DNA from: Candidatus Saganbacteria bacterium
Lineage (GTDB): Bacteria; Margulisbacteria; WOR-1; JAKLHX01
Reading direction: 5' to 3'
DNA: 32,000 nt
Assembly: GCA_026387835.1 (NCBI GenBank)
Contig: JAPLKZ010000005.1
Span: 90,001 to 122,000, forward strand
The notes under the pieces are model-generated. The model had not been told where the DNA came from and did not search any database. It saw only the letters and a list, made by a program, of their open reading frames with translations. Positions 172-3,279 of this stretch are shown piece by piece. Numbering within the stretch: position 1 is the stretch's first letter; each line of letters begins with the position of its first letter. The translations under genes were made by a program, and so were the position numbers.

Positions 172-393
172 ATGATGTCAAATGAGAGCCTGAAAAAGGC
201 AGTTGGCAGAAGAATAACTTCCCTCCGGAAAGCCAAGAATCTTACCATTGAAAAGCTTGCTTATGAGAACGATCTTGCTAAGGGCAATCTGAGTGAGCTT
301 GAAAAGGGAAAGATTAACCCGCAACTTACGACCCTGTATAGAATTGCAAAGGGATTGGACTTGTCCTTGAAAGAATTGCTGGATATAGATTAA
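172..393 (+). CDS. XRE-family (HTH_3) transcriptional regulator, 73 aa
   Basis: The translation has the typical Cro/C1-type pattern: RITSLRKAKNLTIEKLAYENDLAKGNLSELEKGK...LTTLYRIAKGLDLSLKELL. The size matches small controller or antitoxin-type HTH proteins. Confidence 0.85.
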   Translation: MMSNESLKKAVGRRITSLRKAKNLTIEKLAYENDLAKGNLSELEKGKINPQLTTLYRIAKGLDLSLKELLDID

Positions 394-405
394 TTATTAC
401 GCCGC

Positions 406-1515
406 TTATAGTGAAATACCGGACTTCGCAAGAAGATCATTGTAAAGTTTTGCCTGTCCAGATGATCCAGGGATATATGCTTCCCGATTAAAATCACCAT
501 CTTTCAAATCGATTTTATTGAAAATATTTTGAAATTCAGTTATTGATATTACCTTGTCTGGTTTTTTAAAGCTAACGTAGATATCTTTTAATAATTTCAT
601 CAATGCAATAAATCCCGTAGATCTGTTAAGAATGGAATTCTCTTGGACTTTAGTCCACGCATCCTCCCATTTGTTTTGAATGGCCATGAAATAATTCCAA
701 ATTATCATTGTTATTATCTCGTCTTTTTCATCAATAAAAAGATTTCTGAATATAAGCTTAATTGTTTCATCCCCAACAATGCTCTTAGGTTTTCCGCCAC
801 GCTTGTATATATCCCTATCATTCATCGGGTTTTTCGTTATATACTTCATAATGTTTTGTGCCATTGTGGCTTGAGTTATTGTCTCTTTTTCTTTGTCTAA
901 TGCAGTACCAAGCAGTTTTATTTTTCCGTAAAATGGACTTCCCTTTTTGAAGTTTAATACCCGAGTAATATTATGTGCTGTCTTCTGAGGGCTTCTTGAT
1001 TTTGCATATTCAAACAGATCTATTACGAGTGATTGATTAACTTTAGTTTGAGTTTTATTAATAGTTGCGAATAGTATCGCCTGATCTTCTATTTCCATGT
1101 CGATAAAGATTGTAACGTTAAGCTGGAACTTCTCCGCTGCCATGCTATTGTCTTCAAAACCGGCAATTCTATGCTGCCCGTCTAATATTTTTGCAATATC
1201 TGGCCTTTTAATTATGGTTAATTTCTTATTATCAGGATCATAGGACACATTATCAGAGTCTATCGAAAGAATTATGCTTGTTGGAAAAGAAGCATCGACC
1301 AGATTAATGTACTGTTTTAAATCGTCAACTCTCTTTGGGGAGAGAGGCCTCTGTATTCCAATATATTTTTCTATGTCTCTCTCTTCGATTCTTCTTATGT
1401 CGCTAAACGTGATTGATAGCAGATCTTTAAAGTTTATTCTGCCGATGTAAAATTTGCCTATAGGTTGATTTACTTCTATAGAATCGATTGTTATTTTATC
1501 TGCTTTATCTGCCAT
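406..1515 (-). CDS. DGQHR-domain protein (DndB-like, ParB/Srx-fold superfamily), 369 aa
   Basis: Literal DGQHR motif (AKILDGQHRIAGF), plus the upstream IQRPLSPKRV and downstream LFATINKTQTKV motifs characteristic of the DndB/DGQHR family. The start codon overlaps the upstream stop (TAATG at 1513..1517). Confidence 0.85.
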   Translation of the reverse strand: MADKADKITIDSIEVNQPIGKFYIGRINFKDLLSITFSDIRRIEERDIEKYIGIQRPLSPKRVDDLKQYINLVDASFPTSIILSIDSDNVSYDPDNKKLTIIKRPDIAKILDGQHRIAGFEDNSMAAEKFQLNVTIFIDMEIEDQAILFATINKTQTKVNQSLVIDLFEYAKSRSPQKTAHNITRVLNFKKGSPFYGKIKLLGTALDKEKETITQATMAQNIMKYITKNPMNDRDIYKRGGKPKSIVGDETIKLIFRNLFIDEKDEIITMIIWNYFMAIQNKWEDAWTKVQENSILNRSTGFIALMKLLKDIYVSFKKPDKVISITEFQNIFNKIDLKDGDFNREAYIPGSSGQAKLYNDLLAKSGISL

Positions 1516-2135
1516 TATTTGCCCTCTGGATTTTCTGGTCCTGTTGTGTCCTTTCCAGATTCTGATTCTGGAGTTGTAGCAGCATCTTCTTCTTTAAGTT
1601 TCACCATAAGATCATCTATTTCATTGTCGCTTTCTTGTTTCAGATCGACATCGGGAAGATCTTCTTTTGATTCAAACTGGACTGAAAGGGCTCGATAAGA
1701 ACAATAAATAGAGAAACAGATTAATAATACTGAGACCCACCTTACTAAGTTTAGGTCGATGTTAATCGCAGTATTTAAAACGGGGATTATTTGTCCGGAT
1801 AAAAATATCCCACCATACATAACTGAGGAAAAAATAATAAACCATATTAAAGATATGCTTATATAATAATCGACCATCATATTCTTTTTAAGAATCCATT
1901 CTTTATTCTCATTTTCATTAAATAAAAACAATGAGGAGGATAGCAGAGCAGCACTATACAGGAAGAGATCTCCTTTATCAATAAATATATGAACTTCTTT
2001 TGGTTTTGAAATAACGCTCAATAATATCAACCCTATGATCGACGGCAAAACAGTTCCTATAACGTTATGCATCAACCCGGTAATAACTCTCCTCGTTTTT
2101 ACGATTTGCCTTTCTTTCATTTGGTTAGATCGCAT
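1515..2135 (-). CDS. Hypothetical integral membrane protein (about 4 TM helices) with an acidic, probably disordered C-terminal tail of about 55 aa
   Basis: Hydrophobic segments lie near aa 20-42, 57-72, 88-110 and 130-150. The tail is rich in D/E/K/S/T/P (ESKEDLPDVDLKQESDNEIDD...EEDAATTPESESGKDTTGPENPEGK). Both ends are coupled to neighbours by TAATG 1-nt overlaps. I recognise no family motif. Confidence 0.7.
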   Translation of the reverse strand: MRSNQMKERQIVKTRRVITGLMHNVIGTVLPSIIGLILLSVISKPKEVHIFIDKGDLFLYSAALLSSSLFLFNENENKEWILKKNMMVDYYISISLIWFIIFSSVMYGGIFLSGQIIPVLNTAINIDLNLVRWVSVLLICFSIYCSYRALSVQFESKEDLPDVDLKQESDNEIDDLMVKLKEEDAATTPESESGKDTTGPENPEGK

Positions 2136-2953
2136 TAATAGTTCCTTATGATTAATTCGTCAATCTTTTTTCGATACTCTGGTTTTCCAGAAAGAATACT
2201 ACTCCTTGTTGCCACTTCGAGATTCCCAAAATCATTATACATCTTTGCAATTTCAAAATGATTGGCGTTTAACAGTAATATTTTAGCCCCTCTTTTCCTT
2301 GCTCTAAACAAAGATCCTTTTAGGCGTAATTGATCAGCCCATGAAAATATTCTTTCGTTGTATTTCAGAAAACCGTTATTATTATGACAAACTGTATATG
2401 GAGGGTCGACAAATATAAAATCATCTTTGCCTGCCCGATCAATAACAGCTTCAAAGTCCTCGTTATTTAAGGTAGCTCTGGATAGCAAATCTGCAATGTC
2501 TGCAAAATTATCAGATTCCATTATTACATTGGTTTTTGTTCCAATAGGGACGTTGAATTCTCCGTTTTTATTAACTCTGTACAGTCCATTCCAGCATGTG
2601 CGATTCAGATATATCAATCGTGCTGCAGTTTTATAAATATCTAAGGAGATCTGTTGTCTAACATGATAATAGTATTTCTTAGAGTGATTACTGTTATGAT
2701 CTTCTAATATCTTTTTAACCTTTTTGTGATCATTTTTGATCGCTTGATATGTTGTAATCAGTTCGGAATTTAGATCAGATAGTAAAGCTTTTTGTGGCTG
2801 GATCTTAAAAAAAACTGCACCACTTCCTAGAAATGGCTCGATGTATCTTTCAAAATCAATTTTTAGCAGATCAGGGAAGTTTGCGACAAACCATCTTTTT
2901 CCGCCGGCCCATTTCAGAAAAGGTTTTACTTCCTCGTTTTTGTGATTATTCAT
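2135..2953 (-). CDS. Dam-family (D12 class, alpha group) N6-adenine DNA methyltransferase, 272 aa
   Basis: FLKWAGGKRWF N-terminal motif, EPFLGSGAVFF (FxGxG SAM-binding motif) and DPPY catalytic motif, in the order typical of Dam/DpnII-type enzymes. Confidence 0.9.
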   Translation of the reverse strand: MNNHKNEEVKPFLKWAGGKRWFVANFPDLLKIDFERYIEPFLGSGAVFFKIQPQKALLSDLNSELITTYQAIKNDHKKVKKILEDHNSNHSKKYYYHVRQQISLDIYKTAARLIYLNRTCWNGLYRVNKNGEFNVPIGTKTNVIMESDNFADIADLLSRATLNNEDFEAVIDRAGKDDFIFVDPPYTVCHNNNGFLKYNERIFSWADQLRLKGSLFRARKRGAKILLLNANHFEIAKMYNDFGNLEVATRSSILSGKPEYRKKIDELIIRNY

Positions 2954-3279
2954 GATTTTGCGAAGTGCATTTTAATATTATGAAACTAATTAACAAATAA
3001 ATCAATATCAATGACTGAAAGAATATAGACAACTTTGTTGGCGGTAGATAAATAATCGCATAAGAGTTATTGTTCACAGATGAGCTCCTTGAAGTTGTAA
3101 TCGCATAGGTTATAATTAATGGGATTAAGAAGTAACCAGTTGCGAAGTTCGTCTATCAGGGGGAGTTTCTTTTTTGTTGCGAACTAACTTTTGAGGTGGG
3201 CAGCCTAGAGGCGATGCAATCGCGTAAACTGTTCAAGTCGCACTGGCGCGCTTAATTTTATTTCCTTTACATATTAGCA

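Follow-up and report, generated by a model that had tools for sequence, protein, structure and literature searches.

A 32,000-nucleotide (nt) stretch of the metagenome-assembled genome (MAG) of a Candidatus Saganbacteria bacterium (assembly GCA_026387835.1, contig JAPLKZ010000005.1, positions 90,001 to 122,000 of the forward strand, numbered here from its first letter and referred to as the window) contains three adjacent minus-strand genes, which encode a Dam/DpnM-type DNA methylase (2135..2953, 272 aa), a small transmembrane (TM) protein (1515..2135, 206 aa) and a DGQHR-domain protein (406..1515, 369 aa). The trio is a real, widespread and horizontally mobile module, found in identical order and with tight spacing in dozens of unrelated genomes, beyond what chance would produce. 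Its conserved core is the pair of TM and DGQHR genes, which are obligate partners. The module as an entity is well supported; its function is a proposal drawn from sequence, namely that of self/non-self discrimination based on DNA modification, with the pair as a non-canonical effector. In the reading that we prefer, and to which we give about an even chance of being correct, the locus would be one copy of a modification-linked conflict module, in which the methylase marks self GATC sites and the membrane-tethered DGQHR pair acts as a non-canonical restriction or abortive-infection arm.

Operon structure and gene products

The three genes are joined by TAATG junctions in which stop and start codons share one base, as had been described in an earlier note on this DNA, and the sequence and the list of open reading frames (ORFs) agree with it to the exact coordinate. 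The methylase and TM genes overlap at 2133..2137 (TAA 2137..2135, ATG 2135..2133), and the TM and DGQHR genes at 1513..1517 (TAA 1517..1515, ATG 1515..1513). Shine-Dalgarno (SD)-like sequences precede both overlapping start codons, AAGGA (2147..2143) lying 7 nt 5' of the ATG of the TM gene and GAGGG (1526..1522) 6 nt 5' of that of the DGQHR gene. The NCBI annotation starts the TM protein at Met6 (201 aa), which would abolish the TAATG coupling, whereas the gene caller of the contig collection picks the overlapping ATG, where the SD-like sequence is better. On the evidence of this arrangement, the gene of the DpnM-type Dam methylase shares a transcript with the TM and DGQHR pair and is translationally coupled to it.

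The methylase is a complete member of the Dam/D12 class. It exceeds the curated hidden Markov model cutoffs of PF02086 (7e-49, 167 bits, cutoff 22) and TIGR00571 dam (237 bits, cutoff 115), matches the generic MTase_II models of PADLOC (2.6e-103), and carries KWAGGK (2897..2914, residues 14-19), the S-adenosylmethionine motif FxGxG in the form FLGSG (2819..2833, residues 41-45) and the catalytic DPPY (2396..2407, residues 183-186), so that the assignment made in the earlier note holds. The closest solved relative is DpnM (2dpm, 4.4e-49), the GATC methylase of the DpnII system, followed by Escherichia coli Dam (about 1e-26). A hairpin, NGLYRVNKNGEFNVPIG (2540..2590), is conserved in DpnM and E. 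coli Dam with the common consensus NGLxRxNxxGEFNVPxG, which we take, from the structure of E. coli Dam, to be the element that reads GATC. Because the nearest enzymes are GATC methylases, the hairpin is conserved and DpnII nucleases are linked to the module in sister loci, the protein is probably a DpnM/Dam-type N6-adenine DNA methyltransferase with GATC as its target. GATC is not avoided in the host DNA (observed/expected ratio 1.11).

The product of the last gene exceeds the cutoff of TIGR03187 (209.6 bits, cutoff 58.85) and has the QR (1345..1356, residues 55-56), DGQHR (1168..1182, residues 112-116) and FxxxN (FATINKT, 1051..1071, residues 149-155) motifs that the earlier note had recognised. 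In an alignment of 21 sequences, with relatives 51-60 % identical, QR, DGQHR and EDQ...FxxxN are invariant, as are many C-terminal residues. Matches to better-studied families are more distant: the protein matches PF14072 (DndB) with 55 bits and falls below the cutoffs of TIGR04172 (210 vs 450 bits) and of the DpdB model NF041060 (79.7 vs 300 bits). The only PADLOC models matched are those of DpdB (2.9e-25) and DndB (4.7e-7), and an NCBIfam scan with E up to 0.1 returned TIGR04172, TIGR03187 and DpdB only, the dedicated DndB model not being among them. Pfam models for ParBc and helix-turn-helix (HTH) domains gave no match to the DGQHR protein, and neither DUF262, DUF1524 nor HNH was matched by any protein of the trio in Pfam at E up to 0.1.

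An AlphaFold2 model of the DGQHR protein was obtained with a predicted local distance difference test score (pLDDT) of 77. Its N-terminal domain was placed by Foldseek closest to PadC (probability 0.99), then to sulfiredoxin and ParB; the helical C-terminal half had no Foldseek match, and a sequence profile search found no solved structure related to the family at E up to 1. By hhalign the whole protein is a single DndB-type unit, with residues 21-363 aligned to the corresponding unit of a 766-aa paralogue. In the model and these alignments, the protein consists of an N-terminal ParB/Srx fold, with an intact motif set resembling a nucleoside triphosphate (NTP) pocket, and a DndB-type helical C-terminal half. 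A HEPN domain has been proposed for DndB (Makarova 2013), and R174-x6-H181, invariant among the DGQHR relatives, prompted the same idea for the C-terminal half of the present protein. The idea was rejected, as that half is part of one DndB-type unit and the HEPN_Swt1 domain of the paralogue lies outside the region aligned by hhalign; the R-x6-H motif is not kept in the 766-aa paralogue, and no HEPN match was obtained with Pfam or Foldseek.

Scans of the TM protein against Pfam, NCBIfam and PADLOC (KwaA included) gave no match, in agreement with the earlier note, which had seen no family signature in it. The AlphaFold2 model (49 sequences, pLDDT 90) has four TM helices and a cytoplasmic C-terminal helix at residues 165-187; the N-terminus is basic, and both termini of this inner-membrane protein are therefore predicted to be cytoplasmic. 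Foldseek found no match with E < 0.7 in the PDB or BFVD. A word-index homology search with the protein retrieved only itself and, with a profile, 20 distant "hypothetical" proteins, while an exhaustive phmmer search yielded 60 representative clusters, all of them stand-alone proteins of 100-200 aa without fusions. The motif G[DE]FxLYSA, here KGDLFLYSA (1950..1976), is conserved across the family, and the C-terminal helix, with the consensus ...VDxxxESxxxVDxIMxxL, is its sole conserved soluble segment. Of the earlier description as a four-TM protein with an acidic tail, the helices stand; the tail comprises 52 residues with a net charge of -12, where the family medians are 25 residues and about -1, phmmer alignments end at residue 182, and on these comparisons the tail is specific to this lineage and not a feature of the family.

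Recurrence of the pair and its methylase partners

A pattern scan of one genome per species in 185,579 species gave 234 confirmed DGQHR relatives, and 80 loci were fetched (cited below by L numbers); counts out of 78 refer to the fetched loci having upstream DNA and an intact DGQHR ORF. The fetched loci come from more than ten phyla, including Bacteroidota, Acidobacteriota, Gemmatimonadota, Chloroflexota, Planctomycetota, Desulfobacterota, Elusimicrobia and Cloacimonadota, with further loci from Ca. Aerophobus, Bacillota, Campylobacterota and the Alpha- and Betaproteobacteria; Patescibacteria and Ignavibacteriae are added by protein matches. The best 120 DGQHR protein matches have 51-60 % identity over the full length. 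In all 78 loci an ORF of 149-235 aa with 2-4 hydrophobic segments ends between -14 and +42 nt from the DGQHR start, and these 78 ORFs form one BLAST cluster that is seen solely at this position, immediately upstream of the DGQHR gene. The two genes are separated by 15 nt or less in 75 of the 78 loci and overlap in 25. The pair is likewise present in 15/15 prophage-like contigs from IMG/VR, 13 of which also carry Dam, and relatives are held by 63 plasmid records, conjugative or mobilizable plasmids included. On the viral contigs a second conserved arrangement of the three genes was observed, with a convergent Dam gene downstream of the DGQHR gene (L093, L096-L100, L102 and L104).

In 53 of the 78 loci (50 found by clustering, and L013, L016 and L077 by tblastn) the gene immediately upstream of the TM gene is that of a Dam/DpnM-like methylase, at a spacing of 30 nt or less in 50/50 measured loci, and 74/78 have a methylase of any family no more than six genes away; L060 is truncated by the end of its contig. 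Other partners are N6_N4 methylases (L044, L051, L066, L069), MT-A70 methylases (L025, L048, L068) and long D12 methylases (L046, L053, L056, L067, L073). Across loci, the identities of the DGQHR proteins and of the methylases to those of the window show no positive correlation (rho -0.19), and the window methylase is nearest to proteobacterial copies (52-54 % identity) while the window DGQHR protein is nearest to copies from Bacteroidota (55-59 %). Since the identities are uncorrelated and the nearest relatives come from different phyla, the methylase can be regarded as an exchangeable partner, and since Dam is downstream and convergent in 8 of the 15 viral-contig loci, its linkage to the pair is independent of orientation. 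The earlier note had treated the three genes as one cassette and had left it to a neighbourhood comparison whether they co-occur outside this genome. They do so in unrelated genomes, although the unit that is conserved is the TM and DGQHR pair, to which the methylase is added as a replaceable part.

At several loci the pair is found with the genes of a complete restriction-modification (R-M) system. DpnII nucleases (PF04556) are encoded at L039, L045, L063 and L064; in the last three the order is Dam, R.DpnII, TM and DGQHR, a DpnA-like methylase gene following downstream of these, and L039 has this set of DpnII-cassette genes with DpnII and the pair set apart by three others. Nucleases of the BglII/BstYI type occur at L048 and on plasmids pTR3_1 (Acinetobacter) and pRiA4, and all adjacent Type II nucleases with a match to a named family belong to these GATC-core families (DpnII or BglII/BstYI). 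In L033 the order is Dam, TM, DGQHR and DpnA-like methylase, so that this locus looks like a DpnII-type cassette with the pair in the place of the nuclease. As the pair often lies inside complete DpnII or BglII/BstYI-type cassettes, it is better viewed as a derivative of, or accessory to, R-M systems than as a free-standing invention. The DGQHR ORFs of L033 (2098-3495) and L045 (7989-9386), both before a DpnA-like methylase gene, are 465 aa long with about 90 aa extra at the C-terminus, which may be a real extension or an artefact of ORF calling.

The 123 immediate flanking genes matched 135 Pfam families, among which DNA methylases, extra DGQHR paralogues, DpnII, Mrr and HNH are recurrent. 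Mrr-type and HNH nucleases are found in a few flanks, and L046 has an AAA_21 ATPase and an HNH nuclease. Families of the dnd, dpd and ssp systems do not recur in the flanks of the 78 loci. DGQHR paralogues of 760-809 aa, homologous over the loci, adjoin the pair in L001 (278-2584), L003 (4968-7268), L030 (5100-7379) and L056 (1502-3931), and at two of these loci, L003 and L030, they separate Dam from the pair. They combine a DGQHR/DndB unit with an uncharacterised stretch of about 230 aa at the N-terminus, and in L003 a C-terminal HEPN_Swt1 domain was detected by Pfam. In L065 a DUF4145 (HEPN-type) protein is encoded directly downstream.

Such a distribution makes it highly improbable, in our view, that the pair serves the DNA handling of mobile elements (ParB-like partition, membrane attachment or entry exclusion) and merely travels with methylases. 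The ParB/Srx fold and the loci without a methylase would be in keeping with such a role, but a methylase is near in 74 of the 78 loci, in more than ten phyla and in two orientations, and the pair is found inside R-M operons. With ParB partition proteins only the fold is shared: there is no Pfam match to ParBc or HTH, no ParA was seen to recur in the flanks examined, and there are no notable repeats.

Comparison with known systems and proposed function

The trio does not match all parts of any named system in PADLOC-DB v2.0.0, which models neither the TM protein nor the trio, and full-text literature searches found no description of it, in line with the earlier note, to whose author it was not a named system. 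A DGQHR gene accompanied by a DpnIIA methylase and two resolvases is mentioned in passing as a clade-specific accessory locus of Mycobacterium abscessus. With the DpnII and BglII/BstYI R-M cassettes the locus shares a DpnM-like methylase, a compact, translationally coupled operon and an association with mobile DNA. It differs from Type II R-M systems in that no restriction endonuclease is matched by the trio or by other ORFs of the window, the TM and ParB-fold proteins taking its place, and for this reason it does not qualify as a canonical system of that type. The absence of dnd, dpd, ssp and restriction endonuclease genes from the window, which the earlier note had pointed out by eye, was confirmed by profile scans of the window ORFs.

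Like DndB and DpdB, the DGQHR protein has a DGQHR domain, a Pfam match to DndB, the fold of a ParB/Srx nucleoside triphosphatase (NTPase) and an association with DNA modification. It is a member of neither family: of the DndB models only the broad Pfam one is matched, and dnd genes neither occur in the window nor recur in the 78 related loci; the DpdB score lies well under its cutoff, with no Dpd match among window ORFs or flanking genes. To our knowledge, no membrane partner of DndB or DpdB has been described. DndB has been reported to be an ATP-modulated repressor that limits phosphorothioation, and DpdB an ATPase that assists modification. By analogy, the protein of the window might be an NTP-dependent DNA-binding regulator which limits or targets methylation or represses the operon, the TM protein localising or sequestering it, with no action against foreign DNA. 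We hold this to be rather unlikely. Homology to DndB/DpdB-type proteins does extend over the full length, and on pAU20f a sister pair (described below) is divergent and lies beside dndC and dndD in a fetched stretch in which DndB is not annotated. GATC is also enriched upstream of Dam genes, weakly and not decisively (31 observed vs 21 +/- 4.4 expected, z about 2.3, with a site in 19/48 regions). Against this, a Dam methylase requires no cofactor, a membrane partner that is invariant in 78/78 loci would be needless for a pure transcription factor, the occurrence with four unrelated methylase families in both orientations is unlike a promoter-specific repressor, and the pair is embedded among nucleases and HEPN paralogues.

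SspE, GmrSD and BrxU resemble the DGQHR protein in their ParB-like NTPase domain, their DGQ[QH]R motif and the reading of DNA modification state; the DUF262 ParB-like NTPase domain of SspE is reportedly stimulated by the host's own modification. They differ from it in the fusion of DUF262 to DUF1524/HNH, which is not matched here, a membrane protein being encoded alongside instead, and because there is no HNH domain the locus is not a GmrSD/SspE enzyme. A licensing scheme after the manner of SspE, in which N6-methyladenine (m6A) in GATC of self DNA would activate the DGQHR NTPase and so license attack on unmarked DNA, fits the tight methylase linkage as well as a protective scheme does. In the SspABCD-SspE system, going by the title of a study on it, DNA phosphorothioation is combined with SspE as the sensor; a paper that cites this study equates SspE with DndB. 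The HNH/DUF1524 nuclease domain of SspE is, however, absent here, and we regard licensing as improbable, while noting that sequence data alone do not separate it from the conflict-module reading. Common to DndB, DpdB, SspE and GmrS, as DGQHR/DUF262 proteins, is that they are NTPases that act on or near modified DNA.

Kiwa consists of the membrane protein KwaA and the DNA-binding protein KwaB and has no methylase. The likeness to it is one of architecture only, a small polytopic membrane protein being combined with a cytoplasmic DNA-acting partner; neither KwaA nor KwaB of PADLOC is matched, and the TM protein has no significant Foldseek match in the PDB. The locus belongs to none of the dnd, dpd, ssp, Kiwa and ParABS systems.

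The nearest counterpart of the pair was found in phosphorothioation (PT) loci. Distant DGQHR proteins (about 28 % identity) are annotated as "DNA phosphorothioation-associated DGQHR protein 1" or "DGQHR domain-containing protein" on plasmids of Ruegeria, Mesorhizobium and Aureimonas, where their neighbours encode DndC, DndD, a DndE-family protein, a "small protein", an FtsK-like protein and a PT restriction enzyme. A multi-TM "hypothetical protein" of 171-185 aa precedes each PT-linked DGQHR gene, with an overlap or a gap of at most 12 nt (pairs at L083 8438-10212, L088 7468-9197 and L089 5411-7248), and it seems that the membrane partner is an overlooked component of PT loci too. The TM-family profile (A2) did not detect the PT-linked Ruegeria TM protein (E 0.71), the one protein that was compared. 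The window protein resembles TIGR04172 "DGQHR protein 1" by homology over the full length (residues 11-362 align to model positions 2-377), by a small TM partner encoded upstream and by the tie to a DNA-modification module. It is not a member of that family, being under the cutoff, about 28 % identical and without PT genes nearby, and the partner in TIGR04172 systems is PT machinery (DndC/D/E-type proteins, a CxC ATPase and an FtsK-like protein) and not an m6A methylase. A plasmid of Bacillus thuringiensis encodes a four-TM protein of 169 aa and a DGQHR protein near a dcm gene. Given the PT- and dcm-linked pairs, the pair is taken to be older than its association with Dam and to attach to different DNA-modification modules. 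Homologues invariably encoded beside dnd, dpd or ssp genes, which would have told against the idea of the earlier note, are not what is seen: the present clade adjoins DNA methylases, and it is the related TM and DGQHR pair that accompanies phosphorothioation genes.

In the conflict-module reading, the methylase would deposit m6A on the GATC sites of resident DNA, and the TM protein would tether the DGQHR protein to the membrane via the conserved cytoplasmic C-terminal helix. The DGQHR protein would bind DNA as an NTP-driven switch and sense its methylation state, and unmethylated incoming DNA might then be nicked or sequestered, or the membrane partner might be triggered to collapse the membrane (abortive infection). 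In a GATC-type R-M system the pair would in this way stand in for, or support, the restriction endonuclease, and the same logic would render the module addictive for its host. The scheme put forward in the earlier note, in which methylation would protect, the DGQHR protein sense or nick DNA, and the TM protein anchor or kill, is compatible with all the evidence. More tentatively, and with clearly less confidence, the membrane-anchored ParB/Srx NTPase switch could be a new class of modification-reading effector that replaces the endonuclease in GATC R-M systems, with the sister pair doing likewise for phosphorothioation, and so provide restriction-like immunity at the membrane without a classical nuclease.

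A number of observations weigh against the conflict-module reading. Defence, toxicity, methylation specificity and the interaction of the TM and DGQHR proteins are all inferred from genomics. The DGQHR protein shows no recognisable nuclease domain, no likeness of the TM protein to any known pore, holin or defence effector could be detected, and DndB, the best-studied relative, is reported as a regulator rather than an effector. Three loci (L009, L034 and L065) carry an intact pair with no methylase found within about 8 kb, and L024 (7263-7502) retains merely the last 80 or so residues of Dam; these pair-only loci argue against strict lethality in the absence of a linked methylase, with an unlinked Dam as a possible substitute. 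R-M genes aside, the immediate flanks are mostly housekeeping and not a classic defence island.

The pair-only loci bear also on a pure addiction module, in which the DGQHR protein and methylation would keep a membrane toxin, the TM protein, in check, cells that lose the element would die, and there would be no anti-phage role. Small polytopic membrane proteins are common toxins, R-M systems themselves act as addiction modules, and plasmids, prophage-like contigs and an island edge are locations that would suit such a function. The layout is nevertheless atypical of toxin-antitoxin systems, with the putative toxin upstream and conserved as well as its partner, and some pairs have no methylase. 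We give addiction alone a small probability; it largely overlaps, and is compatible, with the conflict-module reading.

Should the pair prove to be an effector that depends on methylation state, many "orphan" Dam methylases of Bacteroidota, Chloroflexota, Acidobacteriota, Proteobacteria and candidate phyla would turn out to supply the modification function of an immunity or addiction system that has so far gone unrecognised. This would give a first function to the DGQHR clade, which has thousands of members, and to a membrane partner that has no Pfam family, would hint at the role of the phosphorothioation-associated "DGQHR protein 1", and would amount to a non-nuclease, membrane-linked enforcement of self/non-self discrimination via DNA modification. 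The module is present in cultivable bacteria and on small plasmids, which makes the hypothesis directly testable; its carriers include Echinicola vietnamensis, Tenacibaculum adriaticum DSM 18961 (L016), Flavobacterium anhuiense FLA4 (L057), Variovorax sp. UC74_104 (L074) and the Acinetobacter plasmid pTR3_1 (L081).

Setting of the locus

The trio has a GC content of 0.33-0.35 (34 %), compared with about 0.45-0.50 (about 47 %) in the remaining window, where housekeeping genes (NADH dehydrogenase/hydrogenase subunits, CstA, citrate synthase and similar) are found, and in the longer contig of the MAG it lies at the margin of an island of at least 13 kb with 33-40 % GC. An XRE-family HTH gene (172..393, plus strand, 73 aa) is convergent with the DGQHR gene and 12 nt from its stop codon. 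Its product matches HTH_19/HTH_3 and, among many generic HTH matches, the PADLOC "Control_protein" model of R-M systems (1.9e-10). The XRE gene was considered as a conserved controller of the module and rejected, as tblastn was positive at just 2/80 related loci. The mobile cassette envisaged in the earlier note, in an AT-rich island beside an XRE regulator, is upheld by the island edge, the plasmids and the prophage-like contigs, but not by the regulator.

The region upstream of the operon (2954..3160, minus strand) contains promoter-like hexamers at 3005..2977 and 2996..2969, which are consensus matches only, and the signal in a promoter scan of this region was no higher than the shuffle expectation. 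In the 32-kb window three copies of the 9-mer ACTTCGCAA are present where 0.31 would be expected, all of them at the trio: two (2958-2966 and 3140-3148, minus strand) are 5' of the methylase start and one (423-431, plus strand) is at the 3' end of the DGQHR gene beside the XRE gene. It may be an operator, and it is not kept at the loci of other organisms. This 9-mer excepted, parS-like or other repeats near the trio were matched only at chance level.

Beyond the left end of the window, the AT-rich island runs for at least 10 kb past the XRE gene (L085 7482-17156). Its genes encode a MORN-like protein, SSB, SpoVG, a protein with a faint RepA_N match, HTH proteins, an N6_N4 methylase of 603 aa and an SNF2/ResIII helicase, and this part of the island has the appearance of a mobile element or of a further modification-linked system.

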